From assembly GCA_963798875.1 (NCBI GenBank), contig CAWCUT010000002.1, positions 1 to 64,000 of the forward strand: a stretch of 64,000 nucleotides of DNA. The letters are read 5' to 3'. Each line of letters starts with the position of its first letter. Position 1 is the stretch's first letter. The position numbers and the translations under genes are program-made. A model generated the notes under the pieces. It saw nothing but the letters and a program-made list of their open reading frames with translations. It was not told the DNA's origin and made no database searches. Shown piece by piece: positions 23,280 through 46,595 of this stretch. The DNA is from an uncultured Solirubrobacterales bacterium (lineage in GTDB: Bacteria > Actinomycetota > Thermoleophilia > Solirubrobacterales > 70-9).

Positions 23280-24600
23280 TCCGCATGTGCGGGAAACGGC
23301 ACGCTAGGCGCGACGAGCCGCCGAGCTCGGCGGGGCGCCGCGCTCGACGAGGACCGTGCGGGACGGCGACCGAGCCGTCGGCGCGCTGGTGGTTCTCGAT
23401 GATCGCGATCAGCGTGCGGCCGACGGCGACGGCCGTGCCGTTCAGCGTGTTGACGGGCTCCGGCGAGGCGCCCTCCGCCGCGCGGAAGCGGCAGTTGAGG
23501 CGGCGCGCCTGGTAGTCGGTCGTGTTCGAGGTCGAGGTCAGCTCGCGGTAGCGCTCCTGGCTCGGGATCCACGCCTCGCAGTCGAACTTGCGGGCGGCGG
23601 GCGCGCCGAGGTCACCGACGGCGATGTCGACGACGCGGTAGGGGATCTCGAGCGCCCGCAGGATCTGCTCCTCGATCGCGAGCAGGCGCTGGTGCTCGGC
23701 CTCGGCCTCCTCGGGCCGGACGAAGCTGAACATCTCGACCTTGTCGAACTGGTGCACGCGGAAGATCCCGCGCGTGTCCTTGCCGGCGGCGCCGGCCTCG
23801 CGGCGGAAGCAGGTCGAGATGCCGGCGTAGCGGATCGGCGAGCGTCGGCGCCGTCGAGGATCTCGTCGGCGTGCAGGGCGGCGAGCGAGACCTCGGAGGT
23901 GCCGACGAGGAAGAGCTCGTCCTTGGGGACCTCGTAGATCATCTCGCGCTCGCCCGGGAAGAAGCCGGTCCCGTACAGCGGCGTCCTCGCGGACGAGGAC
24001 CGGCGGCACGACCGGGTACGAAGCCCTGCGCGCTCGGTCACCTCGACGGCGAAGCGGATCAGCGCCAGCTCGACGAGGACGAGGTCGCCCGATCAGGTAG
24101 GCGAAGCGCGAGCCGGAGGCCTCCGCCGCCTTCTCGGTCTCGATCAGGCCGAGCGCCCGGCCGATCTCGAGGTGGTCGCGGACCTCGAAGTCGAACGCGG
24201 GCCGCTCGCCGACCTCGCGCAGCACGACCGCGTCCTCGTCGGTGTCGCCGTCGGGCGCGTCGGGATGCGGGCGGGTTGGGAAGCGTCGCCGCGAGCCGGT
24301 CGCGCTCGGACTCGACCTCCGCGAGCTCGCCCTCGAGCTCCTTGATCCGCGCCGAGACCTCGCGCATCGCCGCGATCGCCTCGTCCGCGTCGCGGCCCTC
24401 GCGCTTGGCGAGGCCGATCGCGTCGGAGGCCTCGTTGCGCTCGGCCCGCAGCCCCTCGACCTCGGGCAAGCAGCTCACGGCGGCGGGCGTCGAGGCGGAG
24501 CAGCTCGTCGAGGTCGGCGTCGGCGCCGATCCGGGCGAGGGCGGCGCGTGCCGGCGCGGGGTCGTCGCGGATCCGCTTCAGGTCGAGCAGGGTCGCCCCC
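23280..24600 (-). CDS. serS: Seryl-tRNA synthetase, with at least 4 apparent frameshifts. Boundaries are approximate.
   Basis: N-terminal coiled coil ([21 protein letters not shown]...[19 protein letters not shown]). Class II core ([83 protein letters not shown]). Pieces are in several frames and no clean ATG start is found. Confidence 0.65.
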
Positions 24601-24605
24601 GCCGC

Positions 24606-25068
24606 TCAACCGTTGGAGTCGTAGTTCGCCGTCGGGGCGTTGCCGGGCTTGGAGTCCTCCTGCTGCTGCAGGGACTCGTCCTGGTTCGGCGACGGCCGCG
24701 GCGGAATCGACCGCCTGCGTGCCGGAGTAGTCGGCGATGAACTTGGCGACCCGCTTCGCGTCCTCGCCGACGACGATGTTCTGGGGCATGATCGAGCCGG
24801 AGATGCCGCCGTTCTCGATCGCGTACAGCGCGTGCGCGTAGTCGACCTTGCGCTGGTCGAGGTTCGGGCCCTGCTGGCGCAGCGTCCTGTTGCCCGAGCC
24901 CTGCGTGCCGGCGGCGTCCAGCGTGTGGCAGCCGCCGCAGCGCTGGGAGAAGATCGTGGCGGCCGCATAATCGGGGTCATTGGCGGCCACGCTGACGCCT
25001 TCGCTGCCGCAGGCAGCGACGCCGAGGGCGCAGAGCGCGAGTGCGATCAGTACGTAAAGGGGCCGCAC
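24606..25068 (-). CDS. Class I c-type cytochrome lipoprotein; C-terminal frameshift.
   Basis: Lipobox LGVAACGS. Heme-binding CGGCH. Met ligand region GSIMPQN. The tail continues in another frame (…ADYSGTQAVDSAAAVAEP then …QQEDSKPGNAPTANYDSNG). Confidence 0.6.
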
Positions 25069-29752: not shown

Positions 29753-30503
29753 GCCGAGGATCCGGACGAGGCCGAGGGCGAGCACCGACCGCCGAGAGCG
29801 GCAAGCCGCCCGTGCCCGAGGAGGGCACGCCACCGGGCGACGAGCAGGCCGGGCGCCGAGGTCGGCCGATCGGCGCCGAGGAGGAGAGTCAGGGCCACTA
29901 CCGCGAGCCCGACGGCCGGCGTCGAGGTTCCCGACGATCTCCGCGCCGAGATCGAGGCGGCTCTCGCCCGCTACCCGCAGAAGCGCTCCGCCTCGCTGCC
30001 GGCCCTGCATGCGATCCAGGCCCGCTACGGCTGGTGCACGCCGGAGGGAATCGAGCAGGCGGCAGCGGTCATGGACGTCGACCCGGCCTACCTCGAGTCG
30101 GTCGCGAGCTTCTACGACCTCTTCCACCTCGAGCCCGCCGGCCAGCCACCAGGTGCTCGTCTGCACCAACATCTCCTGCTGGATGCGCGGCGCCGACGAA
30201 CTGCTCGACGCGGTCTGCAAGGCAGCGGGCGCCGACCGACACGAGGCCGGCCACGGCGGCACCGTCAACGAGGCCGGCGACATGTTCGTGAGCGGCTTCG
30301 AGTGCCTCGGCGCCTGCGACATCGCGCCGATGACCTCAGTCGACGGCGTCTACTACGGCCCGCTGGAGGACGCGGACGCGCAGACGCTCATCGACCAGCT
30401 CCGCAGCGGCGCCGACGTCCTGCCGGAGAAGGCCCTGAAGCGCGAGGCCGCGGCGGGCGGCCCCGAGCCCGAGCCGGATCCCCGCGTCGCCGACGCCGGC
30501 TGA
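29749..30503 (+). CDS. nuoE: NADH-quinone oxidoreductase subunit E with 2 apparent frameshifts.
   Basis: GTG start overlaps the nuoD stop (GTGA). Core LRAEIEAALARYPQKRSASLPALHAIQARYGWCTPEGIEQAAAVMDVDPAYLESVASFYDLFHLEPAGQ, then frameshift, then HQVLVCTNISCWMRGADELLDAVCKAAG...GFECLGACDIAPMTSVDGVYYG. Frame changes near 29883 and near 30150. Confidence 0.75.
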
Positions 30504-30550: not shown

Positions 30551-30905
30551 TGAGGGAAGTCGGCCGAAGTGAGCCTTCCGTGCTCCCGCGCGCGCCTCTC
30601 ATGACGGAATCGCGTGGCCTCGCGGTCCCCGGCAAGGACACTGGTCACGTTGCACCGCAACCTGCGGTGGAACGTGACCACTCGCCTAAACGGCCTCCCA
30701 ACCCGTCACGGAAGCCAAACGCCCTCGCGCCTTCCGTGACACCTCCGTAGGCCCACACCCCTTACTGCTCCCGAGGCATCACCCGTCCGCCGGGGTCCCG
30801 GCCCCGCGGGGCGTAACCCCACCGCGCACAATCGCCAGCCTCAATCGCTCGCATCGGAGCCACCCCGTCGCGGGGCGTCACGCCATCGCCCGCGAGGGGG
30901 GCCTC

Positions 30906-31290
30906 ACTCCCAGGGCAGCCGGACCGGCCGGCCCGGCGAGTAGCCCAGCGAGAGCCAGTCGTGCAGGCCGCCGCGGTAGTAGAGGAGTGCCTCCGGCGGG
31001 GCGCCGGCGGCGAGCAGGGCCTTGATCGCGCGGGGCGTGGCCCGGCACTGCGGGCCGTTGCAGAAGAGAGCGACCGGGGCACGCTCGACGAGCTCGATCG
31101 ACGTGCTCGGCGATCTCCGCCGAGGGGATTGCGACGGCGCCGGGAATCGTGCCGTGCGCGACCGACTCAGGAATCCGGGTGTCGACGGCGAGCCCGCCGG
31201 CCTCGAGATGCTCGATCAGCTCGAGCTCGCCGATCGTCTCGACGCCCGGCGCGAGCCGCAGCGGCTGCACGGTGCCCCAGCTCGAGTCGA
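30906..31290 (-). CDS. Single-domain rhodanese (sulfurtransferase) with one frameshift. Start is approximate.
   Basis: …ELIEHLEAGGLAVDTRIPESVAHGTIPGAVAIPSAEIAEHVD, then frameshift, then ELVERAPVALFCNGPQCRATPRAIKALLAAGAPPEALLYYRGGLHDWLSLGY. Active-site Cys in CNGPQC. Confidence 0.55.
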
Positions 31291-31455
31291 CGGTGACGAA
31301 GCCGTCGCCCGCCCTGAGCGGGATCGCTCGGGACGTCGGTCGGCGGTGTGGCGCAGGTACGGGCCTTCGGGCGGCCTGAGGGAGCGTCGCCCGACCGGGT
31401 CGGCAAGGTCGTGCGGTGCATCGGTGGGGGCAGTGCCTGTGAGGGCGGCATCGGA

Positions 31456-32666
31456 CTAACCGACCCTCACGCCGCGGCTGCGCGAGGCGAGGAAGAGGCG
31501 CTCGAAGGCGAGCTTCGCCCAGTGCGCCTGCGGTCCGTGCATGATCCGCGGGTTCTCGCTGTCGCCGAGCACGTGGTCGGCCTTGAAGATGACGCCGTTG
31601 TTGCCGGCGTCGAGGACGCAGACCGCGGCGAGGTCGGCGAGCGGCAGCTCCTCGTGCAGCGCCATCGTCGATGTCGGCGGCGATGTTGCGCGCGGCGACC
31701 TCGGCCATCTTCTCGCTCATGTGCCCGGTCTTCGGGACCCCGGCCGGCACCGGCGTCTCGCCGGGCGGCGGGATCGCGATGTCGACCCCGGCGGCGAACA
31801 CCTCGGGGTGATCGACGTGGCGGTACTGGGCGTCGACGGGAATGAAGCCCATCGGGTTGGCGAGGCCCTCGGTGTCGCGGACCACGTCGACCCCGGTGAA
31901 CGGCGGCACGATCATCGAGAAGCTGAAGGGCAGCGTGCGGCCGCCCTCGAGGTGCATCTCGCCGTCGTCGACGCGCTCGATCTCGTTGTTGGTGATCCCC
32001 TCGATCCCGAGCCGGTCGAAGAACTTGCCGACCATCTCGGAGGAATTGCCCACGCCGCCGAGACCGAAGTGGCCGAGGAACGGCTCGGCCGTGACGAAGG
32101 TGACGGGGGCGACGTCCTCGAGCCCCGCCTTCTTGATCCGGTGCTTGACGTTGAAGAGGAACTCGTAGGAGGCGCCGAAGCAGCAGCCGCCCTGGGCGGT
32201 GCCGATCACGACCGGGCCCGGGTCGTCGAGGAACCGCTCCCAGGACTCGCGGGCGTGCGAGCGCGTGCTCGAGGTTGCAGATCGAGCTCGTGTAGCCGCT
32301 CCTCGGGGCCGAGGCCGGCGATCTTCTCGAAGGCGAGCCGCGGGCCCGTCGCCAGCAGCAGCCGGTCGTACGGAGCGTCTGCCCACCCGAGGTCGCGACC
32401 TCGCGGTTGGCGAGATCGATCCGCGTCGCCGCCTCGTTGACGAAGCGGATCCCCTTGCGCTCGTACATCGGCGCCAGCGGGAAGGTGACGTCGTCGGGCT
32501 CGCGGATGCCGAGCGGCAGCCAGATCAGCGACGGGATGAAGGTGAAGTCCTCGCGCGGGTCGAGGACGACGACCTCGTGCTCGTCGGCGAGCTGCTTGCG
32601 GAGCTCGAGCGCCGCGGTCAGCCCCGCGAAGCTCGAACCGACGACGACGACACGTTGGGCTGGCAA
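31456..32666 (-). CDS. sqr: Sulfide:quinone oxidoreductase-like FAD-dependent pyridine-nucleotide-disulfide oxidoreductase, frameshifted.
   Basis: RBS GGAGG plus TTG start. N-terminal RVVVVGSSFAGLTAALELRKQL...VVVLDPREDFTFIPSLIWLPLG. Middle CCFGASYEFLFNVKHRIKKAG...FVTAEPFLGHFGLGGVGNS. C-terminal MHGPQAHWAKLAFERLFLA. Pieces lie in at least 3 frames. Confidence 0.65.
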
Positions 32667-32837
32667 GGCGAACCTCCTGATCGGGAACCGGCCCCCCGTT
32701 CGAGGAGCTGCCCCCGATGGTGCCCTTAGCCGCAGGCGCCTACATCCGTGGCGCGGCGCCGACGGCCTGCGGGTATCCCGCAACGCCGCCCGTCGCCGGG
32801 CGGTGGGCCGGGCACGAGGCCGGAGGCGGGACTCAGC

Positions 32838-33610
32838 TCAGGAGCCGGAGGCCTTCTGGATCGCGTCCTCGACCTGGCCGGTCGACGGCGCGGCACCGAC
32901 GACCTGCGTGCCGCCGGGGCCCTCGACGAGCAGCGAGGGCGTGCTCGAGAAGCCCTTCTCGCTGGCTTCCTTCTGGATGGCCTGCAGCTGCTTCGTCCAC
33001 TTGTCGGAGTTGCGCGAGGTGTTCCAGGCGTCGATGTCCTTGACGCCGGCCGCCTCGGCGACGTCCGTCAGGAACTCGTCGGTGACGTAGCCCGAGTTCT
33101 CCGTGCCCTGGTTGGCGTAGAAGGTCTCGACGAACTGCCAGTAGCGGCCCTGCTCGGAGGCCGCCAGCGCCGCCTTCGCGGCGTCGACGGACTGCGGGCC
33201 GATGATGATGAAGTTCTTGAACTCGATGTTGGCGTCGCCGGCGTGACCGGGCCGGAGAGGAGCTCGGGGATCGACTTGTCGCTGAATGCCTTGCAGGCGG
33301 GGCACTGCAGGTCGCCGAACTCGACGATCGTCGCCTTCGCGTTCGGGTCGCCAAGCACGGTTCCGTTCTGATCGAGGCCGTTGACGAGATCGACGGTCGA
33401 GTTGGTCGTGATCTCGTTGGCGTTGCCCCCGCTGGAGTCGCTGCCGGACTGGCTGATCACGATCAACGCGACGACGACCACCACCGCAATCAGCGCCACG
33501 CCGCCGATGATCGCGAACATGCGCTGGCGCGCGGCCTGGCTCGATTCGGCCTGCTCGGCCTCGAGCCGTTCCTGCCGTCGCTGTTCCTTCTCGTCCTTGC
33601 GGGATGCCAT
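32838..33610 (-). CDS. DsbA-like thiol:disulfide oxidoreductase (membrane-anchored), one frameshift.
   Basis: N-terminal TM (MFAIIGGVALIAVVVVVALIV). Thioredoxin active site GDLQCPACKAF. The C-terminal half (…GRYWQFVETFYANQGTENSGYVTDEFL…) is in a second frame. Confidence 0.6.
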
Positions 33611-33639
33611 CCGGTCGGGTGTCCTCTCTGGGGTGGGGT

Positions 33640-34116
33640 CTAGCTGGGTAGGGGCTCTCGCGGTGCCGTGCTAACGCCGGCGAACCGTATCCCGCGCAGC
33701 AGGCTAACGATGAGCACGAGGGTCATGACGATCGCGCTGCCCACGCACCACTGGCAGATCGCGTTGATGACGAAGAGCTCCAGGTAAGTCAGGTAGGCGG
33801 AGAAGCCGAAGCCGATCAGCGCCGCGAGGATGCCGAGCATCCGGCCGGGGTCGCCGGGTAGCGCTGCGGCGACGAGCACCGCGACGTAACCGAGCAGCCC
33901 GAGCACAGGAACCGGGATGCCGGCGAGCTTCGCGTAATCGGAGTGCTGCACGGTCTCACAGCCGCCACCGAAGGCGCAGACGGGGTTGTCGCCGCCGGCG
34001 TAGTGCTCGATCGTCAGGTAGACGGCGATCCCAAGGCCGATCAGGCCAAGCACGCCGAGCGTTATCCGCAGACGTCGTTCGGTCACGCCTCTTCTCCGCG
34101 CTGCGCCACGCCGCAA
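33640..34116 (-). CDS. Vitamin K epoxide reductase (VKOR) family protein.
   Basis: Four-TM protein with CAFGGGC and CQWC motifs. Adjacent to the DsbA-like gene, the usual actinobacterial DsbA/VKOR pairing. Confidence 0.75.
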   Translation of the reverse strand: MRRGAARRRGVTERRLRITLGVLGLIGLGIAVYLTIEHYAGGDNPVCAFGGGCETVQHSDYAKLAGIPVPVLGLLGYVAVLVAAALPGDPGRMLGILAALIGFGFSAYLTYLELFVINAICQWCVGSAIVMTLVLIVSLLRGIRFAGVSTAPREPLPS

Positions 34117-34195
34117 GGGTAAGCGGTTCCCATCTTCCGCACCTAAACACCTACGGGCACCGCGGGTGGCGGGTTCACTGCAGCTGTGCTACTCT

Positions 34196-34216
34196 CATTC
34201 ACAACTGTTTAGTTGT
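34196..34216. promoter_or_regulatory. Candidate ArsR-family operator.
   Basis: AT-richer sequence cattCACAACTgtttAGTTGTata with the perfect 6-4-6 inverted repeat ACAACT/AGTTGT, about 25 nt upstream of the arsR-like start. Confidence 0.4.
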
Positions 34217-34237
34217 ATAGCTTGAAAGGCAACCCAG

Positions 34238-34579
34238 ATGGCCCTTCCGTCACCGATCCCTGAGCCCGTCGTCGAGCTCATCGCCGGGCGCTTCCGGCTC
34301 CTCAGCGAGCCGATGCGGATCCGCGCCCTCGACCAGCTGCGGGAGGCCGGCGAGGCCTCCGTCAGCGAGCTCTCCGAGGCACTGGGCACGAGTCAGCAGA
34401 ACGTCTCCAAGCACCTCGGCGCCCTCCATGGCGACGGCATCGTCAGCCGCCGCAAGGACGGCAACCGCGTGCTCTACGCGATCGCCGACGACTCCGTGCT
34501 CGAGATCTGTGAAGCCGTCTGCGGCGGCATCGAACGCCGCGTCGGCGAGCTCTCCAACGCCCTGGCGGCGGTGGCCTGA
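34238..34579 (+). CDS. ArsR/SmtB-family transcriptional regulator.
   Basis: Winged-helix core (LSEPMRIRALDQL...ASVSELSEALGTSQQNVSKHLGALHGDGIV). C-terminal CEAVCGG pair of Cys. Stop overlaps the downstream ATG (TGATG). Confidence 0.8.
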   Translation: MALPSPIPEPVVELIAGRFRLLSEPMRIRALDQLREAGEASVSELSEALGTSQQNVSKHLGALHGDGIVSRRKDGNRVLYAIADDSVLEICEAVCGGIERRVGELSNALAAVA

Positions 34580-36714
34580 TGAGCGCTGCAAGCACTTCAC
34601 CTGTCGCACCGGTCGTCGTCGGACCGGTCGGGCGCCTCGGCGCCTGGGCCGGCTCCCACTTCCGCACCGTCCTGATCGCGTGGATCGTGATCGTCGTCGG
34701 CCTCGGCTTCTTCGCGCCGAAGGTCGAGACGGCGCTCTCCGGCGCCGGCTGGGAGGCGAGCGGCTCCGAATCGGTCGCCGCCCGCCAGCAGCTCGACACG
34801 CAGTTCGGGGGCCTCTCCTCCAGCGCCCTGCAGGTCGTGGTCAGCTCGAGCACGCTGAGCTCCGGCGACCCCGCCTTCGACGCTGTCGTCGCCAAGACCG
34901 GCCACGTGCTTGCCGGCGATCAGCGCGTCGCCCGCGTGATCCCGCCGCGGCAGTCCGGCGCGATCTCGCCCGATGGCCACACGGTCGTCGTGCAGGCCGC
35001 CGCCGGTGCGAACAGCAACGACATGGTCCGCGCCGCCGACGACCTCAAGGGTCCCCTCGCCGCCGCCGGTAACGATCAGGTCACGGTCGCCCTGACGGGG
35101 TCCTCCGGCATGTGGTCGGACTTCAACGAGGCGAACCGCAACGCGATGATGAAGTCGGAGGTGATCTCCTGGCCGGTGACGCTGACGATCCTGCTGCTCG
35201 CCTTCGGATCGCTCGTCGCCGCCGGTCTGCCGCTGATGCTGACGATCATGGGGCTGGCCGCCGCGGCCGGATCCCTCTACCTCGGCTCGCAGCTCTTCGA
35301 CATCTCGATCTGGGCGATGAACTTCGCGCTCATGTTCGCGCTGGCGCTCGGCATCGATTACGCGCTGTTCATCGTCTACCGCTTCCGCGGCGCCCTCTTC
35401 GGCGCCGAGCGTGACCCGGTCGAGGCCGCCGCCGTGACGATGGACACGGCCGGCAAGGCCGTCCTGTTCAGCGGCATGACCGTGCTGATCTCGCTCTCGG
35501 CGGTGATGCTCGTCCCGAGCCCGGCCTTCAGATCGATGGCGCTCGGGATCATGCTCGCCGTGATCTTCGTCCTCGGCGCGTCGCTGACGCTGCTGCCGGC
35601 CGTGCTCGCCAAGCTCGGCCCGAAGATCGACTCATTGAGCCTGCCCTGGGTGCACTCCGGCGAGCACCGCTCGGCGCGCTTCGCCGCCTGGGGCGAGCGG
35701 ATCTGGCGACGGCCGCTGCTCTACGGCATGCCGGCGCTGCTGTTGCTCGTCCTTCTGGCGCTGCCGATCCTGCGCCTCGACACCGGCATGCCGTCGATCA
35801 AGGTCGTGCCCGAGGGCGACTCTTCGCGGACCGGCTACCAGCAGATCACCTCGGCCTTCGGCCCCGGTGCTCCCGGCACCCTGCAACTCGTCGGCCCGGC
35901 GGCGCAGGTGAAGATGGCCGCCAACGAGGCAAAGGCCGACCCCGGCGTTGCCGCCGTGCAGCCGATCCTCGCGGGCCCGCAGGGCGGCGCCATGGTCCAG
36001 GTGGTCCCGGCGTCGGATCCGTCCGCGAGCGCCACGGGCGCGACGATCGACAGGCTCCGCAGCGAGCTGCCCAACCAGGTGCTCGTCGGCGGCGCGGTCG
36101 CCGAGAACCACGACCTCGAGCAGCTGCTCAAGGACCGGACGCCGCTGGTCATCGGGGTCGTGCTCGTGCTCGGCTTCCTGCTGCTGCTCGTTGCCCTGCA
36201 GGCACCGCTGGTCGCCGCGCTCGGCGTGATCACCAACCTGCTCGCGGTCAGCGCCGCGTTCGGCGCGGCGACGCTGATCTTCCAGGACGGGCACCTGTCC
36301 GGCCTGCTCGGATTCGAGTCGCAGGGCTTCCTCGACGCGTGGGCGCCCGTGTTCTTCTTCGCGATGGTCTTCGCCATCTCGATGGACTACACGGTCTTCC
36401 TGCTGTCCTCGGCAAAGGAGCACTGGGACCGCAGCCACAACGCCCGCGAGGCGATGGTCGGTGGGCTCGCCCACTCCGGCCGCGTGATCTTCGCGGCGGC
36501 CGGCGTGATGGTCGCGGTGTTCCTCACGTTCGCGCTCTCGGGCCCGCTGCCGCCGAAGGAGATGGGCGTGATCCTCGGGATCGCGGTGCTCCTCGACGCG
36601 CTGCTCGTGCGGCTGCTGCTCGTGCCCGTCCTGCTCCGTTTCGCAGGCGCCGCCGCGTGGGCCGTGCCCCGCCGGTTGCAGAAGCTGCTGCCGAACGTAC
36701 GCTTCGGTCACTGA
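34579..36714 (+). CDS. MMPL-family (RND superfamily) membrane transporter.
   Basis: 711 aa, intact. Two MMPL-type transmembrane bundles separated by periplasmic domains. Confidence 0.8.
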   Translation: MSAASTSPVAPVVVGPVGRLGAWAGSHFRTVLIAWIVIVVGLGFFAPKVETALSGAGWEASGSESVAARQQLDTQFGGLSSSALQVVVSSSTLSSGDPAFDAVVAKTGHVLAGDQRVARVIPPRQSGAISPDGHTVVVQAAAGANSNDMVRAADDLKGPLAAAGNDQVTVALTGSSGMWSDFNEANRNAMMKSEVISWPVTLTILLLAFGSLVAAGLPLMLTIMGLAAAAGSLYLGSQLFDISIWAMNFALMFALALGIDYALFIVYRFRGALFGAERDPVEAAAVTMDTAGKAVLFSGMTVLISLSAVMLVPSPAFRSMALGIMLAVIFVLGASLTLLPAVLAKLGPKIDSLSLPWVHSGEHRSARFAAWGERIWRRPLLYGMPALLLLVLLALPILRLDTGMPSIKVVPEGDSSRTGYQQITSAFGPGAPGTLQLVGPAAQVKMAANEAKADPGVAAVQPILAGPQGGAMVQVVPASDPSASATGATIDRLRSELPNQVLVGGAVAENHDLEQLLKDRTPLVIGVVLVLGFLLLLVALQAPLVAALGVITNLLAVSAAFGAATLIFQDGHLSGLLGFESQGFLDAWAPVFFFAMVFAISMDYTVFLLSSAKEHWDRSHNAREAMVGGLAHSGRVIFAAAGVMVAVFLTFALSGPLPPKEMGVILGIAVLLDALLVRLLLVPVLLRFAGAAAWAVPRRLQKLLPNVRFGH

Positions 36715-36748
36715 TGCGAAAGCCAACCAACGAGCCAAGGAGTCACCG

Positions 36749-38131
36749 ATGATCTTCCGACAGTTCCTGCAGGAGGACCTCTCGTGCGCCTCCTACATGG
36801 TCGGCGACGGCGATTCCGTCGCGATCGTCGATCCGAAGTTCGAGATCGACGAGTACCTGCAGACGGCCCGTTACCTCGGGGTGAAGATCGAGCACGTGCT
36901 CGAGACGCACAACCACGCCGATCACGTCTCCGGCCACGGCCGGCTGGCGGCGGCGACCGGGGCGACGATCCATGTGCACCGGCTCGCCGACCCCGACTAC
37001 GAGCACGAGTCCTTCGACGACGGCTGGGAGCTGGAGCTCGGCGATCTCGTGATCCGCGCGCTGCACACGCCGGGCCACCGGCCCGAGCACACGGCGTTCG
37101 CGCTGATCGACCGCTCGCGCTCCGACGACCCCTGGGCGGTGCTGACCGGCGACACGCTGTTCGTCGGCGACGTCGCCCGGCCGGATCTCGCGATCGACAA
37201 GACCGAGGGCGCCCGCGGGATCTTCGAGTCGCTGCACGGCAAGCTGCTCGGCCTGCCGGCGGACACCGAGATCTGGCCCGGCCACCTCGGCGGCTCGATG
37301 TGCGGCTCCGGCGCGATGAGCCCGAAGATCGCCTCGACGATCGGTTTCGAGCGCGCCCACAACGAGCTGCTTGCGATCAACGACTCCGAGGAGTTCGTCG
37401 CCGCCTCGCTCGAGCGGATCGGCTCCCAGCCGCCGAACTTCCGCAACATCGTCGCGATCAACCGCGGCGAGCTGCTCACCGACGGCGTCGACGCGCACCC
37501 GCTGACGCCGGGCCAGCTGCAGCGCCGGATCGACGACGGGGCGTTCCTCGTCGACACGCGAACGACGATGCAGTTCGGCGACGCCCACATCCCCGGTGCC
37601 ACGCACATCTCGATCCTCGGCCCGGGCTTCGCCTCGCGGCTCGCGTGGCTCGCCACACCCGACCAGGAAATCGTCTTCGCCGGGCGCGACGACGCCGACG
37701 GCGTCCGCGCGGTGCAGCTCGCCCAAGCCGTCGGCCTGCGCAACCTCGGCGGCTTCCTCGACGGCGGCATGACCGCCTGGCGCGAGGAGGAACGGCCGGT
37801 GGAGCGGACCGAGCGGCTCACGGTCGGTGAGCTCAAGGAGCGCTGGGACGCGGGCGAGATCGAAGTCCTCGACGTGCGCGAGCCCGGCGAGTACGAGGAG
37901 GGCCACATCCCCGGCGCCCGCAACCTCGTCTGGCACGACATCGACCAGCTCCCCGCCGACGTCGACGGCAAGCCGGTGGCGACGATCTGCCAGGGCGGCA
38001 CCCGGGCCGGGATCGCGGCGAGCCTGCTGCAGCGCTTCGGCGCCGAGCGGGTCGCCTACGTCCCCCGCGGTGGCATGAGCGCCTGGCGGGAGCAGGGCTT
38101 GCCGCTCGAGGATCCCCGGGCCGCGGACTGA
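36749..38131 (+). CDS. Metallo-beta-lactamase-fold persulfide-dioxygenase-like enzyme fused to two rhodanese domains (CstB/Blh-like).
   Basis: HNHADHVSGHGR (HxHxDH) MBL motif. Two C-terminal rhodanese modules with Cys in ICQGGTRAG. 460 aa, intact. Confidence 0.75.
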   Translation: MIFRQFLQEDLSCASYMVGDGDSVAIVDPKFEIDEYLQTARYLGVKIEHVLETHNHADHVSGHGRLAAATGATIHVHRLADPDYEHESFDDGWELELGDLVIRALHTPGHRPEHTAFALIDRSRSDDPWAVLTGDTLFVGDVARPDLAIDKTEGARGIFESLHGKLLGLPADTEIWPGHLGGSMCGSGAMSPKIASTIGFERAHNELLAINDSEEFVAASLERIGSQPPNFRNIVAINRGELLTDGVDAHPLTPGQLQRRIDDGAFLVDTRTTMQFGDAHIPGATHISILGPGFASRLAWLATPDQEIVFAGRDDADGVRAVQLAQAVGLRNLGGFLDGGMTAWREEERPVERTERLTVGELKERWDAGEIEVLDVREPGEYEEGHIPGARNLVWHDIDQLPADVDGKPVATICQGGTRAGIAASLLQRFGAERVAYVPRGGMSAWREQGLPLEDPRAAD

Positions 38132-38196
38132 TCGCCGGCGAGGCGTCACGTTCCATGTCGTCACGACATGCTTCGTAACCAGCCGGCGGGGCGCCG

Positions 38197-38970
38197 ATGA
38201 GCGGCCTCGAGGCGGCACCGCTCGGCCTCGCGATCGGCCTCTTGATGGGCGCCTTCGGCGGTGGCGGCTCGCTGCTCGCCGTGCCGCTGCTCGTCTACGT
38301 CGTCGGCCAGGACGTGCGCGAGGCGCAGGCGACCTCCCTCGTGATCGTGATCGCCGGGGCGCTGGCGGCGCTCGCCGCCTACCTGCGCACCGACGACGTG
38401 CGCCTCCGCGCCGGCATTGCCTTCGGCCTGGCCGCCGGCGTCAGCGCGCTCGCCGGCTCCGTTGTCAACCGGCACCTGAACCCCGACCTGCTGCTGCTCA
38501 TCTTCAGCCCGCTGATGGTCGCCGGGGCGGCGGCCCTCGTCAGCGACGCCGCGCGCCGGCCGGCCCAGTTCCGGCCGTGGCGCTTCGGCATCTCACGCTC
38601 AAGCGTCGTGCGCGTCATCGTCTACGGCCTCGCGGTCGGTTGGATCACGGGCTTGTTCGGCGTCGGCGGGGGCTTCGTGATCGTCCCGGTGCTTGTCCTG
38701 GGCCTGCGCTTCTCGACGATCGAGGCGGTGGCGACGAGCCTGCTGATCGTGATCATCGGCTCCGGCTTCGCGCTCGTCGACCGGATCGCCTCCGGCGACG
38801 TCGACTGGAGCATCGCGATCCCGCTCTCGATCGCCGCGGCCCTCGGCGCGCTCGCCGGCCATCAGGTCGCCGAGCGCTACGACGGCGAGCGGCTGCGCCA
38901 GGCACTCGCCGTGGTCATCGTTGGGGCCGCCGTCTACACGGCGATCCGCTCGGCCGCGGCGCTGATCTGA
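38197..38970 (+). CDS. TauE/SafE-family sulfite/organosulfur exporter.
   Basis: Eight-TM duplicated 4-TM architecture, 257 aa. Glycine-rich helices typical of DUF81/TauE. Confidence 0.7.
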   Translation: MSGLEAAPLGLAIGLLMGAFGGGGSLLAVPLLVYVVGQDVREAQATSLVIVIAGALAALAAYLRTDDVRLRAGIAFGLAAGVSALAGSVVNRHLNPDLLLLIFSPLMVAGAAALVSDAARRPAQFRPWRFGISRSSVVRVIVYGLAVGWITGLFGVGGGFVIVPVLVLGLRFSTIEAVATSLLIVIIGSGFALVDRIASGDVDWSIAIPLSIAAALGALAGHQVAERYDGERLRQALAVVIVGAAVYTAIRSAAALI

Positions 38971-38979: not shown

Positions 38980-40566
38980 TTAGCTGCGCGCGGCGTCGTT
39001 GCCGGGCGCGAACTCCCGGGCCGTCTGGCGGCGCAGGACTGCCACGCCGAACGCGGTCAGCGCCGCGAGCAGGATGAAGACGAGCACCTGCCCGATGCCC
39101 TGGACGCCCGGCATGAAGGACAGCCACAGCAGGTAGACGCCGGCGACGATCGTGTACGTGCCGACCGGGTGATCGCGCAGGAAGGGGGCGATGAAGCGAC
39201 GCGACGCCACGGCATAGCGGCTCGGCCCGGCGAGCGCCGCGGCAGCGAGGAACCCGAGGCCGATGACGAGGATGAAGCGGGCCCGGTCGCGCAGCGACTG
39301 GGAGAGGATGTCCCACACTGACTCGATGGCCGGCTTGACGGTTTCGGTGCTCGCCAGGGAGCCGACCTCGTTGCCGATCAGGCGCTTGGCCGTGAGCACG
39401 ACGAGCGTCGCGACAACGATGCCGCCGCCGACCGCGCTCAGCGCCTCCCGGCGCCAGCCCTTGGCGAGATAGAGCGCGGCGATGAAGAGGAAGAAGACGA
39501 GCAGCGGCAGCACGATGCCCAGGTTGCGGAGCACCTTGACGGCCGTCTGAATGCCGCTCAGCTCGTTGGAGTCCATCAGCACGAGCTGGCCCGGGTTCTG
39601 GACGACCTGGCTGTCGAGCAGCGTCGTTACCCGGCCCTGCAGCGTGGCGAGGTTGGCATCGAGCGCCTCGACGTTCGCCCGGCTCGGATCCTTGAGCACG
39701 ACTGCGGTGCGGTGCTCGAGCACGACGAGCCGGTGCTTGACGTCGGCGAGGACGCCCTTGAGGTCGGAGAGCTTGCCCTGCAGCTGCGAGGGCACCTTGT
39801 CCTCGATGCCGGCGATCTTCTTCTGCAGGCCCTTGATCTGGGTGACCAGGTCGCCGGCGAGCGTGTTGAGCTCCGTGAGGTTGGTCCGGGTCTCGGAATC
39901 GAGCACGCCCGTCTGCGCCTGGGCGATGCCGGCCCGGACCGAGGAGATCTTGCCCTGCGCCTCGGTGAGCCGGTCGCGGAGCGTTACCGAGAAGTCCTGG
40001 ATGAAGCTCTGAATCTGCTCGATCGTCGCCGGATTGACTCCGAGCCGGGCAGCCAGATCGGCGATTACGGCGCCGTACTGGAAGGTGACCTCGCCGTTGG
40101 TGGTCGAGACGAACTGGCCCTTGTCCTCGATCAACGAGACGAACTGTTTGTGTGCCGCGGTCACCGCGCCGGAGACGAGCCCCTGGACCTGGGGCGAGGC
40201 GAGCGCCTTCTCGGCCACGTTGGTGGCGAGGTCCCTCGTCACGGCCGCGATCGGGCCCGCGAACGGCTGCACCTGGGGCGGCAGCTTCGCCTCGATCTGA
40301 GCCTGGACGTCGACGTCCTTGTAGAGCTGGTCGACGGCGAAGACGCTGAGCTGCTCCTGGACGTCGGAGTCGGCGAGGATCGAGTCCGTCGTCTTGCTGA
40401 CCTGGTTCGTGTCGAGCAGCGCCTCCTGGACCCAGTTGGCCGTGATCGAGAAGATCAGCAGGATCGAGGCGACGACGACGAGCGTCCAGACGCCCGCCCG
40501 ATGGCGCCTGTGGGCGGCAGGGAGCTCGGCCGTCGGTTGATCGGCTTTGCCGGCCATGGTCGGCAC
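38980..40566 (-). CDS. Hypothetical membrane protein with a long extracytoplasmic coiled-coil domain.
   Basis: 528 aa. N-terminal TM helix, then a Q/T/V/K/D-rich heptad-like region of about 300 aa, then about 4 C-terminal TM helices. Intact ORF. No recognisable family. Confidence 0.5.
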   Translation of the reverse strand: MPTMAGKADQPTAELPAAHRRHRAGVWTLVVVASILLIFSITANWVQEALLDTNQVSKTTDSILADSDVQEQLSVFAVDQLYKDVDVQAQIEAKLPPQVQPFAGPIAAVTRDLATNVAEKALASPQVQGLVSGAVTAAHKQFVSLIEDKGQFVSTTNGEVTFQYGAVIADLAARLGVNPATIEQIQSFIQDFSVTLRDRLTEAQGKISSVRAGIAQAQTGVLDSETRTNLTELNTLAGDLVTQIKGLQKKIAGIEDKVPSQLQGKLSDLKGVLADVKHRLVVLEHRTAVVLKDPSRANVEALDANLATLQGRVTTLLDSQVVQNPGQLVLMDSNELSGIQTAVKVLRNLGIVLPLLVFFLFIAALYLAKGWRREALSAVGGGIVVATLVVLTAKRLIGNEVGSLASTETVKPAIESVWDILSQSLRDRARFILVIGLGFLAAAALAGPSRYAVASRRFIAPFLRDHPVGTYTIVAGVYLLWLSFMPGVQGIGQVLVFILLAALTAFGVAVLRRQTAREFAPGNDAARS

Positions 40567-41979: not shown

Positions 41980-42060
41980 CGATCCAGCCGCCCGCTGCAG
42001 GGCCGGCTGCGGAGGAAGGACCACGGCAGGGTCCGGCGGGCCTCCGGCGAAGACCTCGCC

Positions 42061-42528
42061 GTGCCCTCCAAGCCGGACAGCTCGATGGCTCAGCGCTACA
42101 TGGAACGGCGCGTCGAGGAAAAGGGGCTGCTGCCGCGGATCGCGGCCTCGCTGATCGCGACTGCGTGGGTCGCGGCGATCGTCGTCTTCGGGATCGTCGA
42201 GCATCTGATCGACCCCGACACCTTCGGTTCGGTCTGGTACGGGATGTGGTGGGCGACGCAGACCGTGACCACCGTCGGCTACGGCGACGTCGTCCCGCAA
42301 AATGGCGCCGGGCAACTCGTCGCGACGGTCCTGATGGTCGGGGGCCTCTCCTTCTTCGCCGTGCTCACGGGCTGGATCACGACCGCCTTCGTCACCCGAG
42401 CGCAGTCGCTGCGCGACCGTGGGCCTGAGCTGGCGGTCGAGGAGAAGCTGGACCGGCTCACCGCCGAGATCACGGCGCTGCAGGAGCAGGTCGCGCGGCT
42501 CGGGCCGCCGGCCAAGGGCGGCGTCTAG
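42061..42528 (+). CDS. Two-TM potassium channel (KcsA-like).
   Basis: Selectivity filter TTVGYGDV between two TM helices. C-terminal coiled coil. Confidence 0.75.
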   Translation: MPSKPDSSMAQRYMERRVEEKGLLPRIAASLIATAWVAAIVVFGIVEHLIDPDTFGSVWYGMWWATQTVTTVGYGDVVPQNGAGQLVATVLMVGGLSFFAVLTGWITTAFVTRAQSLRDRGPELAVEEKLDRLTAEITALQEQVARLGPPAKGGV

Positions 42529-42548
42529 ATCTAGATGGTTGATCCCAC

Positions 42549-43934
42549 CTAGGTCGGCGCAGGCGGCGGATCCGCCCCGGAGCCCGCGCGCGCTGCGGCG
42601 GGCTCGTCGTCCTCGTCCGACGGCTGCGGCAGCTCGATCACGACCAGGTAGGCGACGACGACGCCGACGATGATCAGCGGGCTCGTGCCGAGCCCCGAGC
42701 CGGCGGTGAGCACGAGCGCCAGGACCGTGGCCGAGAGCGGCAGCCGCAGGACCGCGACGACCGCGGCGCCGATGCCGACCGCGATCGCCGGCGTCAGCTC
42801 GAAGCCCGGCAACCGCGACGCCATGATCCCGCCGGCGGTGCCGAGGAAGATCGCCGGGAAGACCGGGCCGCCGCGGAAGCTGCCGAGCGAGATCCCGTAG
42901 GCGATCCCCTTGAGCGCGATCAGAACGGCAAGGGCCCCCGTCGACCAGGCGGCGGCGTCGTGGACCAGCGGCGCGACCTGCACCTCGCCCGAGAAGAAGA
43001 CCTCGTCGGCGCCCTTGTCGGTGATCTGCGCGAACACGATCGCGAGCACCGAAACCGTCGCCCCGATCAGTGGCAGCACGACGAAAGGACGGCGCAGGGC
43101 AGCGGGCTCGACCCGGCGGCCGATGATGAAGATGAGGTGCACGGCCACGGCGATCACGACCGCAAGCGGGATCGTCCACAGGAAGTCGACCGCATCCGGG
43201 CGCGCGAAGGCGGGCAGGCTGATCGGCCCGAGCGCGATGGCCGAGGTGTCGAGGCCGGTCCACGAGCCCATGCCGGTGGCCAGCAGCGAGCCGATCCCGG
43301 AGGCGAGCAGACCGGGGATCAGGATGAGCGGCAGCCGCTGCTTGTCGAGCCCGGCCGCCTCGACCAGCAGTACTGCCGCGATCACGGGCGAGCCGAACAG
43401 GAACGAGATCGCGGCGAAGACGCCCGCAAAGGCGATGATCAGCTGCGCCTCCGGCGGCGAATCGGAGGCCGCCTGGCGGATCAGCAGGAAGCCGAGCCCG
43501 CCGCCGACGGCGATCAGCGGCGCCTCGGGACCGAGCACGATGCCGAGGCCAATGCCGGCGAGCGCGGCGAGCAGGACTCCGGGCAGGTCGATCGGCTCGG
43601 TCGGCGTCGCGTTGAGCCCGCGGACTGGAATGTGCCCGCCCTTCCCTGGCATGCGCGCAACGGCGAAGGCGACGAGCACGCCGGCGATGACGAGGAACGG
43701 CAGCGACCACCAGTCCGGGGTGCTGTCGAAGCCGAAGGTGTCGGGCAGGTCGTCGTAGACGCCGACCTGGATCTGGTGGATCGCCTCGAGAAAGCACCAG
43801 GCGACGAGCGAGGAGACGATGCCGACGATCGCCGCCAGCACGAGCAGCTTGAGGAACGAACGCTGCCGCATCACGGCCATCGGGTCGGGCCCTCCCGCCG
43901 GCGGCTGGGGCTGGGCGGCCTGCGCCTCCATCAT
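42549..43934 (-). CDS. ClC-family voltage-gated chloride channel/transporter.
   Basis: 461 aa polytopic protein with ClC-like GKGGHIP and GPEAPL segments. Confidence 0.7.
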   Translation of the reverse strand: MMEAQAAQPQPPAGGPDPMAVMRQRSFLKLLVLAAIVGIVSSLVAWCFLEAIHQIQVGVYDDLPDTFGFDSTPDWWSLPFLVIAGVLVAFAVARMPGKGGHIPVRGLNATPTEPIDLPGVLLAALAGIGLGIVLGPEAPLIAVGGGLGFLLIRQAASDSPPEAQLIIAFAGVFAAISFLFGSPVIAAVLLVEAAGLDKQRLPLILIPGLLASGIGSLLATGMGSWTGLDTSAIALGPISLPAFARPDAVDFLWTIPLAVVIAVAVHLIFIIGRRVEPAALRRPFVVLPLIGATVSVLAIVFAQITDKGADEVFFSGEVQVAPLVHDAAAWSTGALAVLIALKGIAYGISLGSFRGGPVFPAIFLGTAGGIMASRLPGFELTPAIAVGIGAAVVAVLRLPLSATVLALVLTAGSGLGTSPLIIVGVVVAYLVVIELPQPSDEDDEPAAARAGSGADPPPAPT

Positions 43935-43969
43935 CGGGCCGAGCCTATGGGAAACGCCCCTGCACGGAT

Positions 43970-43986
43970 CACCCGGTCAGGGTGAT
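43970..43986. promoter_or_regulatory. Palindromic motif TCACCCGGTCAGGGTGA (site 1 of the recurring family).
   Basis: Perfect 6-5-6 inverted repeat about 85 nt upstream of the 44071 gene. The identical 17-mer occurs at 46596-46612. Confidence 0.45.
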
Positions 43987-44070
43987 GCTCGCGGCCCTGC
44001 GCCTGCGCTGGAGTTCAATATGGTGCCGACCGCGCGCCGGCGCGGTTCACACCAACAGGAGGATCAGGCG

Positions 44071-44490
44071 ATGCCGACCCAGGCCTACCAACCGAACAAC
44101 TTCCGTTTCGTCGAGCGCCCGCAGCTCGGGACCATCGGCGAGCGCCTCACCGTCGCCGGCTGGCTCGGGCTGATCGGCCTCCTCAACCTCTTCTACGCGA
44201 TCGCGGTGATCGCCGGCTCGGACATCTTCATCACCACCGCTTCCTGGCTCGTCGGCGACGCGCGGCCCTGGGGCTGGCTGATGCTGGTCGTCGCCCTGAT
44301 CCAGCTCGCCGCCGTCCCGGCGGCGGCGCTCGGCATGAAGCCTGGCCTGTGGATCGCCGTCATCTCGGCGATCGCCCACATCGCGGCAGCGATCATGTTC
44401 ATGACCGACGAGTTCGTGCTCGGGCTGCTCCTCATACTCGTCGACATCGCCATCCTGCTCGCCGCGGCGATCGCGATCGAAGACGCCTGA
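44071..44490 (+). CDS. Small DUF-type membrane protein (paralog A).
   Basis: RBS AGGAGG then ATG. 139 aa with 3-4 TM helices. Paralogous to 46130-46546 (shared …G.D.F.T…W.G…G…IQL…A… pattern). Confidence 0.6.
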   Translation: MPTQAYQPNNFRFVERPQLGTIGERLTVAGWLGLIGLLNLFYAIAVIAGSDIFITTASWLVGDARPWGWLMLVVALIQLAAVPAAALGMKPGLWIAVISAIAHIAAAIMFMTDEFVLGLLLILVDIAILLAAAIAIEDA

Positions 44491-44870
44491 GCGGCGTCTG
44501 GCCAGGCTGGTCCGGGCTGGGTCGGCGGGGGGTGGCGGCAGCTCCAGCCCCTTACGCCGCGCGGACCGGCGTTGCCGGCGAAGGGCGTGGCAGCGCGAGG
44601 GCACTGAGGGAGGTCGGTTGAGAAGGGGGGTGGGCTTGGGCGTTCCTTGTCGACTTTTCCATCTATATGACGGGAAAGTCGACGAGGTTCGGTGCCGCGG
44701 GCCCAGCGGGCCCAGCGGGCCCAGAGATGGACTTCGCCTGCGCCCCTCGGTGCCCAAAGGCGGTCAACCTTCCGCCGGCGTCGGGGTTGGGCCCGCGGCG
44801 ACCGCCGGAACGCAAACGGCCGGCGACCCGAGGGCCGCCGGCCGCTGCTCGAACCTCTCGAGACGGCGCC

Positions 44871-45167
44871 TCAGCCGAGGATCTTGGCCTTCTGGGCCGC
44901 GAACTCTTCCTCGGTGAGGACGCCGCTGTCGCGGAGCTCGCCGAGCTGCTTGAGCTGCGCGATCGGATCTGCCGCGGGCGCCGCCGGGGCGGCGGGCTGC
45001 GCCTGCTCAGCCATCTGCTGCTCGGTCCCCATGTCGACGCCGGTGTAGGGGTCGCGGCCCTGGTCGGCCCAGCGCTGGTGCTGGCGCTTTTGGACGCGAC
45101 CGCTGACGGCGGTCGCCGTGCCGGCGACGACGGCGGTGCGGGCTACTCCTCGAATCAGTCCTGGCAT
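44871..45167 (-). CDS. SHOCT-domain protein.
   Basis: C-terminal LKQLGELRDSGVLTEEEFAAQKAKILG (SHOCT). ATG preceded by AAGGAG. The longer track ORF is an over-extension. Confidence 0.6.
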   Translation of the reverse strand: MPGLIRGVARTAVVAGTATAVSGRVQKRQHQRWADQGRDPYTGVDMGTEQQMAEQAQPAAPAAPAADPIAQLKQLGELRDSGVLTEEEFAAQKAKILG

Positions 45168-45213
45168 TGTCTCGCTCCTTGTTCGCTGAGTGGTCGAAGT
45201 GTGACGGGGCCGG

Positions 45214-45768
45214 TCAGCCCTCGAGCTCGTCGAGCGCTGCGAGCAGCGCCTGCACCGGGATCCTGCCGCTGGCGACGAGCTGGCCACCGGAGCGACGCAC
45301 GGCGGACGCGAAGGGCGCCGCCCACGAGTTCTCGTAGACGAGCAGCGCCGCCGCGGTCCCGGGCTCGAGCGCCTCGGCCGCCTCGGCAAGGTCCTCGTCG
45401 CCGATCAGCCCCGAGGAGGCGCCGGCGAAGACCTGCAGATGCTCCGCCGGACCACCGAGGTCCTCGAGGTCAAGCGCTGCGATCGTGCCGTCCTCGCCCT
45501 TGACGAAGACCGCGAGGTCGAGGACGCGGATGATGCCCCGCTCGACCAGGTCGAGGAGCAGCGGCATGGCCTCTCCGTTGGGCTGCCGGTCGGGCCACTC
45601 GACCAGGATGTAATCGATCGGGCCGACCTCGTCCAGTTCTTCGCTCGCCACCTCTACCACCTCTCGGTTCAACTCAGGTTTCCGGTTATGGGCGCAGGCT
45701 ATCTCGGTCGCATGGCTGGGCATCACCCGGATCGAGTGACGTCCGCCAGGCTCGCCGACGGCTCGCAC
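45214..45768 (-). CDS. Hypothetical protein (DUF, often paired with SHOCT in actinobacteria).
   Basis: …GPIDYILVEWPDRQPNGEAMPLLLDLVERGIIRVLDLAVFVKGEDGTIAALDLED… No catalytic motifs recognised. Confidence 0.4.
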   Translation of the reverse strand: MRAVGEPGGRHSIRVMPSHATEIACAHNRKPELNREVVEVASEELDEVGPIDYILVEWPDRQPNGEAMPLLLDLVERGIIRVLDLAVFVKGEDGTIAALDLEDLGGPAEHLQVFAGASSGLIGDEDLAEAAEALEPGTAAALLVYENSWAAPFASAVRRSGGQLVASGRIPVQALLAALDELEG

Positions 45769-45800
45769 TCGGCGGCGGCGGGCCCGACGCGGCTTCGGGG

Positions 45801-46073: not shown

Positions 46074-46129
46074 ACGACGAGCGGGGCCCGCAGGCCCCGC
46101 TCGAGGTGTGCTTTGTTCGGTCGGTGGCG

Positions 46130-46546: not shown

Positions 46547-46595
46547 TCCCCTCGTGGTTGCGGAACGAAGGTAGGCCGCCTGTTGCCGGCCACCG

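Follow-up and report, generated by a model that had tools for sequence, protein, structure and literature searches.

A candidate cst-type detoxification cluster for sulfide and reactive sulfur, built around an ArsR–MMPL pair and inserted between nuoE and nuoF in a Solirubrobacterales clade

In an uncultured Solirubrobacterales bacterium, a block of genes for sulfur chemistry lies within the nuo region, which raises the question of what these genes do together and which signal controls them. The block occupies positions 30904–38970 of the stretch that we analysed, the first 64,000 nucleotides of contig CAWCUT010000002.1 of assembly GCA_963798875.1 (hereafter the window; G+C ∼70%). A preliminary description of it had listed, in order, a rhodanese, a sulfide:quinone oxidoreductase (SQR), a DsbA-like protein, VKOR, an ArsR regulator, an MMPL transporter, a CstB-type fusion protein and TauE. 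We found all eight products in that order and at essentially the coordinates given, from the rhodanese stop codon, which ends at 30904, to the TauE stop at 38970. The embedding in nuo was also as described, with nuoA, B, C, D and E immediately upstream and nuoF downstream, one 528-residue gene intervening. On balance we favour the view that this is a cst-type cluster for the detoxification of sulfide and reactive sulfur, organized around the ArsR–MMPL pair, and that in one Solirubrobacterales clade it was inserted between nuoE and nuoF.

The genes form two divergent blocks. Those for the rhodanese, SQR, the DsbA-like protein and VKOR occupy the minus strand (30904–34116), and those for ArsR, MMPL, the fusion protein and TauE the plus strand (34238–38970). 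The start of mmpL overlaps the arsR stop codon (ATGA), and 29 bases separate the dsbA and VKOR genes. A promoter and terminator scan of 30.4–40.8 kb gave 0 promoter-like sites and one terminator-like site, within mmpL, and so nothing usable. Three of the minus-strand genes carry single-base indels in this assembly; their products are described here after frame correction, and the nature of the breaks is considered below.

The frame-corrected SQR aligns over its full length with the A. ferrooxidans SQR 3SZ0 (E = 1e-90) and the Aquifex SQR 3HYV (E = 1e-72), and matches Pyr_redox_2 at 59.8 bits. The equivalents of Cys128, Cys160 and Cys356 (A. ferrooxidans numbering) are kept, in the segments SSIC, GGCCFG and AAVC. 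The fusion protein is collinear with 3TP9 (E = 6e-52; residues 1–454 against 4–473) and with Staphylococcus aureus CstB, 3R2U (E = 6e-40; residues 1–441 against 25–459). It consists of an MBL-fold dioxygenase, a middle rhodanese-like domain and a C-terminal catalytic rhodanese, and Pfam detects two rhodanese stretches. The dioxygenase metal ligands are present, in the motifs HNHADH (54–59), TPGH (107–110) and GD (D135), which align with those of CstB 3R2U, 3TP9, BpPRF and ETHE1; their absence, which was to have counted against the preliminary description, was not seen. The hallmarks of CstB are a Cys-Gly in a CstB-specific loop, a C-terminal rhodanese cysteine and two arginines that steer the S-sulfonate (2026 preprint, PMC12934615); in the window, C185-G186, C414, R377 and R419 align with C201-G202, C408, R370 and R413 of CstB. 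Enzymes of this type convert two persulfides to thiosulfate, and sulfite is not released (PMC12934615). Because the fusion enzyme has every CstB-specific residue, its expected product is thiosulfate and not free sulfite. The route first proposed, from H2S through persulfide to exported sulfite, therefore stands in its logic of oxidation and anion export, and falls in its product. The TauE gene follows cstB in all orthologous loci and in Miltoncostaea marina.

The DsbA-like protein has a CPAC motif, an N-terminal transmembrane segment (34–52) and frame-corrected matches of 76.7 bits to Thioredoxin_4 and 37.4 bits to DSBA. VKOR has the four canonical cysteines, C47, C53 and C121-x-x-C124. What is expected of a disulfide-forming pair, a thioredoxin fold with CxxC, the VKOR cysteine set and adjacent genes, is thus present. 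The pair accompanies the cluster in the nuo-embedded clade only and shares its regulatory region with the ArsR operon; it may be there because sulfide stress calls for the mending of extracytoplasmic disulfides, or because the pair and the cluster are both linked to the quinone pool. The enzymes, and the presence of such a cluster in a soil actinobacterium, are ordinary, as is a detoxification pathway whose logic is already known from the S. aureus cst operon and from a Streptomyces circuit. What is new is an ArsR subfamily that has CxxxC in the middle of helix α5 and a conserved operator, and that travels with MMPL and often with a YgaP-like protein as well.

The regulator matches PF01022 (HTH_5) at 47 bits and NF033788 at 80.5 bits (cut-off 55), and its AlphaFold model (predicted local distance difference test score, pLDDT, 92.6) has the canonical α1–α5 winged-helix fold, with α5 at residues 86–112. 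Its only cysteines, C91 and C95, fall in the first half of α5, and the N-terminal half of the protein has none, in agreement with the earlier observation that a CxxxC replaces the usual N-terminal cysteine. All 120 of the closest database homologues (64–100% identity) contain [LIM]-C-[ED]-x-[VI]-C, which supplies the sole cysteines in 116 of them. CxxxC is also kept in a group of ArsR paralogues at 45% identity. Of the 150 best representatives after clustering at 50% identity, 92 have it, and truncated sequences make up many of the others. Judged by these alignments, ArsR proteins with a mid-α5 CxxxC are a large, distinct subfamily.

The label BigR/SqrR-like, which the regulator had been given, did not survive comparison. 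Its nearest solved relative is Rv0081, both by sequence (E = 5e-12, 35% identity) and by fold (TM-score 0.76–0.85). By sequence, Rv0081, SrnR, NolR and SmtB outrank BigR (E = 4e-7) and SqrR (3e-6); Foldseek places Rv0081, SrnR and NolR first, with BigR at rank 34 and SqrR at rank 40; and the BigR equivalog model NF040642 gives 39.3 bits against a cut-off of 155. The α2 position that BigR/SqrR sensors use for a cysteine is a nearly invariant Leu31. Given the missing α2 cysteine, the low BigR model score and the low fold rank, we rejected membership of the BigR/SqrR/HlyU type; what the regulator does share with those sensors is co-location with genes for a sulfurtransferase, a dioxygenase and a sulfur transporter. 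Metal sensing at a classical site was rejected as well, since the ligand sets of α5 (SmtB/CzrA) and of α3/α3N (CXC) are absent. Aligned to SmtB, only D84 is kept, with S86, G97 and R100 in place of H106, H117 and E120, and α3 has no cysteine. A grouping with the defined metal-sensing ArsR proteins, set beforehand as the outcome that would speak against the preliminary description, was not seen, and no ars, cad or czc-type genes lie near the cluster.

By HMMER coordinates, C91 and C95 appear to precede the position equivalent to SqrR Cys107 by one and two turns of the helix. Being one helical turn apart from each other, they would be poorly placed for a simple disulfide, but extra sulfur atoms could bridge them; in SqrR, such a geometry is held to give persulfide specificity. 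We found no mention of a CxxxC ArsR site in a 2026 preprint on ArsR allostery or in a 2024 review of metallostasis.

The perfect ACAACT-N4-AGTTGT operator that had been proposed is borne out. The repeat, ACAACTGTTTAGTTGT, lies at 34201–34216, 22 bases upstream of the ArsR ATG, and is the sole match in the window at up to two mismatches. It is kept in the orthologous intergenic regions of three relatives (L001, L025 and L003) and nearly so in two more (L002 and L006). Among upstream regions of 78 homologous ArsR genes, drawn from metagenomes and genomes, 63 contain it at up to two mismatches, compared with 41 of 5000 random 123-base segments, and the consensus extends to about CACAACT-N4-AGTTGTG. 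The 45%-identity paralogues (L007–L009, L014, L031 and L035), which retain CxxxC, have a different palindrome (AACCATATGGTT; TTCAACCATATGGTTATA), from which it seems that these bacteria, as a group, have two regulators, each with an operator of its own.

The MMPL protein has about 12 transmembrane segments by hydropathy profile and matches MmpL3 with E = 2e-43; its proton-relay pairs GIDY (D260-Y261) and SMDY (D603-Y604) align with D256-Y257 and D645-Y646 in transmembrane segments 4 and 10 of MmpL3. Orthologues 72–81% identical are present across many assemblies. In a set of 80 metagenome loci (L045–L124), fetched with the ArsR alignment, an MMPL gene (57–85% identical) adjoins arsR in 43; among the 28 that span 4 kb or more, 19 have the MMPL. 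The transporter, whose presence in the cluster had already been remarked upon, is thus a recurrent partner of ArsR in soil metagenome sequences and clearly part of the unit. Look-ups by exact sequence returned no recorded entry for the MMPL or the CstB-type protein of the window. That its role is to take hydrophobic zero-valent sulfur out of the membrane is a guess to which we attach low confidence. Literature searches returned no paper linking ArsR, persulfide and MMPL, or MmpL with SQR or a persulfide dioxygenase. Cysteine is absent from MMPL, from TauE and from the 528-residue protein (Table 1).

In addition, many loci encode a small membrane protein of 60–90 residues with a G-x-C-P motif and a match to the YgaP-like transmembrane domain. 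Its gene separates arsR from mmpL in ∼38 of the 80 metagenome loci, and a related form lies divergently upstream of arsR in L041 (7615–7890), L006 and L004; the window has neither form. The M. marina protein (L125:8741–8995) is borderline, at 24.0 bits against a cut-off of 25.3. In Escherichia coli, the YgaP-like domain is part of a rhodanese that an ArsR-type sulfur sensor controls.

The arrangement in which dsbA–VKOR and arsR–mmpL–cstB–tauE diverge between nuoE and nuoF recurs in L001, L002, L003, L006 and L025. L004, which is without MMPL, and L005 end at contig ends, and the parts covered show the same nuo-embedded arrangement; in L041 the cluster follows nuoE, with glycosyltransferase genes, not nuoF, behind tauE. 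The sqr–rhodanese pair is an accessory found only in the window, L001, L025 and L041. The cluster is modular within the clade: L004 is without mmpL, and from L002 sqr is precisely missing (L002:4299–4308, compared with 31452–32712 of the window), so that the rhodanese gene adjoins dsbA. Of the 28 metagenome loci that span 4 kb or more, 13 contain a match to SQR, MBL, rhodanese or TauE, whereas the same search found none in the 56 kb of the window outside the cluster. SQR is encoded divergently to ArsR in L052, L060, L061, L098 and L117, and the 45%-identity ArsR paralogue lies beside CstB and a divergent TauE without MMPL in L007, L008, L014 and L031, and with MMPL in L009. In the complete genome of the cultured M. 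marina (CP064655.1, about 726.2–732.0 kb), the arsR, YgaP-like, mmpL, rhodanese, cstB and tauE genes overlap or abut, and an OsmC-family gene comes next. MMPL accompanies the regulator more constantly than the sulfur enzymes do.

Table 1. Features of the sulfur cluster and of the adjoining gene before nuoF, in window coordinates.
Feature	Position	Strand	Remarks
Single-domain rhodanese (sulfurtransferase), active-site loop FCNGPQC	30904..31451	-	Three 1-base indels; frame-corrected PF00581 35.6 bits
Sulfide:quinone oxidoreductase, closest to type I	31457..32666	-	Four 1-base indels; TTG start after AGGAGG
Membrane-anchored DsbA-like thiol:disulfide oxidoreductase, CPAC	32838..33610	-	One 1-base indel; Thioredoxin_4 and DSBA matches
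VKOR-family quinone-dependent disulfide generator, partner of DsbA	33640..34116	-	PF07884, 103 bits
Predicted ArsR operator, perfect inverted repeat ACAACT-GTTT-AGTTGT	34201..34216	.	In the 121-base divergent intergenic region between VKOR and ArsR
ArsR/SmtB-family repressor, 113 residues, C91 and C95 in C-E-A-V-C	34238..34579	+	HTH_5
MMPL-family RND transporter, 711 residues	34579..36714	+	PF03176, 228 bits
CstB-type persulfide dioxygenase-sulfurtransferase, 460 residues	36749..38131	+	Lactamase_B and two rhodanese domains
TauE/SafE-family anion exporter, 257 residues	38197..38970	+	PF01925, 149.6 bits, profile positions 2-236 of 237
528-residue membrane protein between TauE and nuoF	38980..40566	-	Five predicted transmembrane segments

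The cluster had been presented as a run of contiguous genes. All eight are there; what had been missed is that the rhodanese, SQR and DsbA genes are not intact open reading frames as written. Frame switches were seen by three-frame translation, and each was placed at a single-base indel by alignment to relatives: three in the rhodanese gene (near 31411, 31325 and 31096), four in sqr, which runs through three frames (near 32371, 32299–32315, 32256 and 31657), and one in dsbA (near 33243). Further breaks, called against the short-read assemblies L003 and L005, occur in nuoE (one; 29822–30503), in nuoG (two; 54188–56690) and in a gene at 23600–25020 (two). A frame plot of G+C at third codon positions shows additional phase switches between 10 and 25 kb. 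Indel noise thus appears to run across the whole window.

In L001, the closest relative (94.7% DNA identity), the broken genes are nuoC/nuoD and mmpL; the rhodanese and DsbA genes are intact there, and sqr has one break. All three genes are intact in L025 and L041, and the rhodanese gene in L040 also. Substitutions in SQR relative to L001 fall 8/6/44 at codon positions 1/2/3 (76% third-position) and those in DsbA 12/3/29, a bias equal to that of intact genes; relative to L041, conservation within the cluster is highest in SQR. The frame-corrected SQR has no in-frame stops and has lost no catalytic residue. The nearest relatives are 'MFD' long-read soil metagenome-assembled genomes with long contigs, which fits long-read indel noise. 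Because housekeeping genes are broken too, L001 is broken elsewhere, L025 and L041 are intact and the third-position bias is kept, we conclude that the frameshifts are most likely assembly errors, and likely long-read ones.

We propose that an ArsR dimer bound to the palindrome would repress arsR–mmpL–cstB–tauE, and probably also the opposite VKOR–dsbA(–sqr–rhodanese) genes. SQR would oxidize incoming sulfide at the membrane, passing electrons to menaquinone and producing sulfane sulfur. Persulfides or polysulfides would modify C91 and C95 and so release the repressor; because the two cysteines are one helical turn apart, they would probably be joined, within one protomer or between two, by a tri- or tetrasulfide bridge. 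The rhodanese would shuttle sulfane sulfur, the CstB-type enzyme would turn two thiol persulfides into thiosulfate by way of its Cys-Gly loop and C-terminal rhodanese cysteine, and TauE would export the oxyanion. The proton-driven, cysteine-free MMPL might clear hydrophobic or amphiphilic sulfur species from the membrane, our best guess being elemental or polysulfide sulfur made by SQR.

Several observations weigh against this scheme. The known ArsR persulfide sensors all belong to one cluster of a sequence similarity network and have one cysteine in α2 and one in α5, and Rv0081 stands for a separate, largely uncharacterized ArsR cluster (PMC10054925); the regulator of the window falls outside the cluster of known sensors. 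With two cysteines per protomer on the dimer-forming helix, binding of a thiophilic metal or an Fe–S cluster is just as conceivable. A search at three mismatches found no second operator upstream of sqr or elsewhere in the cluster. The eight indels of the rhodanese, SQR and DsbA genes fall within 2.75 kb, with none in the adjacent 5.3 kb from VKOR to TauE, which is more clustered than uniform error would be, and the close relative L002 is without sqr altogether. Finally, the ArsR–MMPL pair occurs with no sulfur gene nearby in the Gaiellaceae (L042/L043), in L044 and in Solirubrobacter pauli (L126), and sulfur stress may for that reason not be the only, or the primary, signal of the pair.

These solitary pairs also speak for a reading that we consider doubtful, albeit worth weighing: that ArsR–MMPL is an independent module for export of a lipid, a drug, a quinone-like electrophile or a thiophilic metal(loid) conjugate, its cysteine pair sensing the exported compound or general thiol stress, with the sulfide genes mere frequent neighbours. 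At other loci the neighbours of ArsR are a ClC channel, Nramp with a thioredoxin, or tRNA synthetases, and it is Rv0081, SrnR, NolR and SmtB, not BigR or SqrR, that are the best structural relatives. Sulfatase genes can be counted on the same side: a sulfatase, an FGE-sulfatase and a HAD gene lie beside arsR–mmpL in S. pauli (L126:11136–14493), and a sulfatase follows nuoF in L001 (L040:17922–20276). Such neighbours may hint at sulfated substrates or may be coincidence. An export module with accidental neighbours would not, however, be expected to recur with SQR, dioxygenase, rhodanese and TauE in several gene orders, nor to have its transporter inside a tight operon between ArsR and rhodanese–cstB–tauE, as in M. 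marina, nor to admit a YgaP-like gene between regulator and transporter in about half of the metagenome loci. The want of ars, cad or czc-type genes nearby, and of α3 and α5 metal ligand sets, also tells against it.

A detoxification cluster therefore remains our preferred reading, and it has a bolder extension that we think unlikely as a whole: ArsR with the α5 CxxxC, the YgaP-like protein and the cysteine-free MMPL would constitute a widespread actinobacterial module that senses sulfane sulfur through a polysulfide 'staple', intrahelical or between protomers, and pumps dissolved zero-valent sulfur from the membrane, the cargo being S8 or polysulfide that SQR has made or that has come in from the soil.

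The setting within nuo invites another interpretation, that the genes conserve energy instead of detoxifying. Sulfide would then be an auxiliary electron donor to the menaquinone pool, and the nuo placement and the quinone-reducing VKOR would reflect co-regulation of quinone-linked dehydrogenases. We regard this as quite improbable, even though the SQR most resembles the high-affinity type I enzymes that lithotrophs have, and the location between nuoE and nuoF is conserved. In relatives without the 528-residue gene, tauE and nuoF lie on the same strand ∼30–105 bases apart (∼30 in L005:3345–3377; ∼100 in L003, about 12180–12286, and in L006, about 12177–12282). With so short a gap, nuoF onward might there be transcribed from the ArsR-controlled promoter, and co-transcription would suit an energetic role. 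SQR is dispensable, however, being missing from L002, L003 and L006; the CstB–TauE route would dispose of sulfur as exported thiosulfate, without full oxidation; and the ArsR–MMPL–CstB–TauE unit is found outside nuo in M. marina and in L007–L009.

The nuo operon of this genome is, moreover, interrupted by unrelated genes as well. A second insertion of ∼12 kb (41980–54090) splits nuoF from nuoG, which are adjacent in L003, L005 and L006; it contains genes for a K+ channel, a ClC channel, two DUF7144 proteins, a DUF6325 protein, a pyridoxal phosphate-dependent decarboxylase of the glutamate type, a DUF2252 protein, a large LuxR/AAA regulator and a bestrophin-like protein. After nuoH, an opposite-strand ABC transporter of the oligopeptide type (57700–63351; two ATPases, a permease and a family-5 binding protein) stands instead of nuoI–N, so that the nuo genes are in at least four pieces. 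Because the operon is also interrupted between nuoF and nuoG and broken after nuoH, the location of the cluster within it may be devoid of functional meaning. As for the 528-residue membrane protein that precedes nuoF, Pfam and NCBIfam give no family above cut-off, and its gene is present in L001, L002 and L025 and missing from L003, L005, L006 and L041; with no family to place it in and a distribution limited to the closest relatives, it probably stands outside the sulfide system.

That the rhodanese, SQR and DsbA genes are real pseudogenes, in a strain losing the sulfide-oxidizing half as the L002 lineage has already lost sqr, was dropped as the leading reading and is in our opinion very unlikely, for although the bunching of the indels, the clean deletion in L002 and the lack of SQR and rhodanese in L003 and L006 would suit it, indels of the same kind break the housekeeping genes nuoE and nuoG, L001 is broken in other genes, and the corrected SQR retains its catalytic residues, its third-position bias and its rank as the most conserved gene against L041.

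If a detoxification cluster is the right reading, a second large ArsR lineage would use another cysteine geometry, and sulfur sensing would have evolved more than once on the ArsR scaffold, which would provide a natural test of how cysteine spacing affects persulfide specificity. That a proton-driven MMPL is so constant a partner suggests a step of transport that is absent from the bacterial sulfide-handling systems described so far; were the wider module real, it would bring a new ArsR sensing site and a new class of substrate for MMPL/RND transporters. The intact operon in the cultured M. marina makes these ideas directly testable.

Among known systems, the closest in content is the S. aureus cst operon (tauE / cstR-cstA-cstB-sqr), which has the same set of SQR, sulfurtransferase, three-domain CstB, TauE and a dithiol repressor, and whose CstB-specific Cys-Gly loop, rhodanese cysteine and arginine pair are all conserved in the fusion protein of the window. 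It differs in that its repressor is the CsoR-family CstR and not an ArsR protein, in that it has neither MMPL nor DsbA–VKOR, and in that its sulfurtransferase is the multidomain CstA, whereas the window has a single rhodanese and an SQR closest to type I. Streptomyces coelicolor has a likewise actinobacterial set of repressor, dioxygenase, rhodanese and TauE, a four-gene circuit that senses and removes sulfane sulfur and whose repressor binds a palindrome (PMC7533328); there, however, the repressor is CsoR-like, the dioxygenase is a single-domain enzyme that yields sulfite, SQR and MMPL are absent and the genes are not in nuo.

The BigR operon of Xylella and Agrobacterium and the SqrR and YgaV regulons, whose persulfide sensors form ArsR network cluster 4, resemble the window in having an ArsR repressor near a dioxygenase–rhodanese fusion and sulfur anion transporters. 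Each of these regulators, like that of the window, has two cysteines, and the YgaP-like gene of the relatives parallels E. coli ygaV–ygaP. In the sensors of that cluster, however, the cysteine pair spans α2 and α5, whereas in the window both cysteines are in α5 (i, i+4) and α2 has a leucine (PMC10054925). Mycobacterium tuberculosis Rv0081, of ArsR network cluster 3, is like our regulator in being a non-metal protein without the classical ligand sets; it has no cysteines at the positions of C91 and C95, and its context is hypoxia and formate hydrogenlyase, not sulfur genes or MMPL. The transporter, for its part, is of the same fold class as MmpL3 and MmpL4/5, with 12 transmembrane segments and the Asp-Tyr pairs of segments 4 and 10. 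At 711 residues it is much shorter than the mycobacterial MmpL proteins, and it scores 181 against a cut-off of 1400 bits for the MmpL3 family. It is free of cysteine and predicted to be under ArsR control, where the mycobacterial proteins are under TetR or MarR, and its neighbours are genes of sulfur oxidation, where theirs are genes for lipid or siderophore synthesis.

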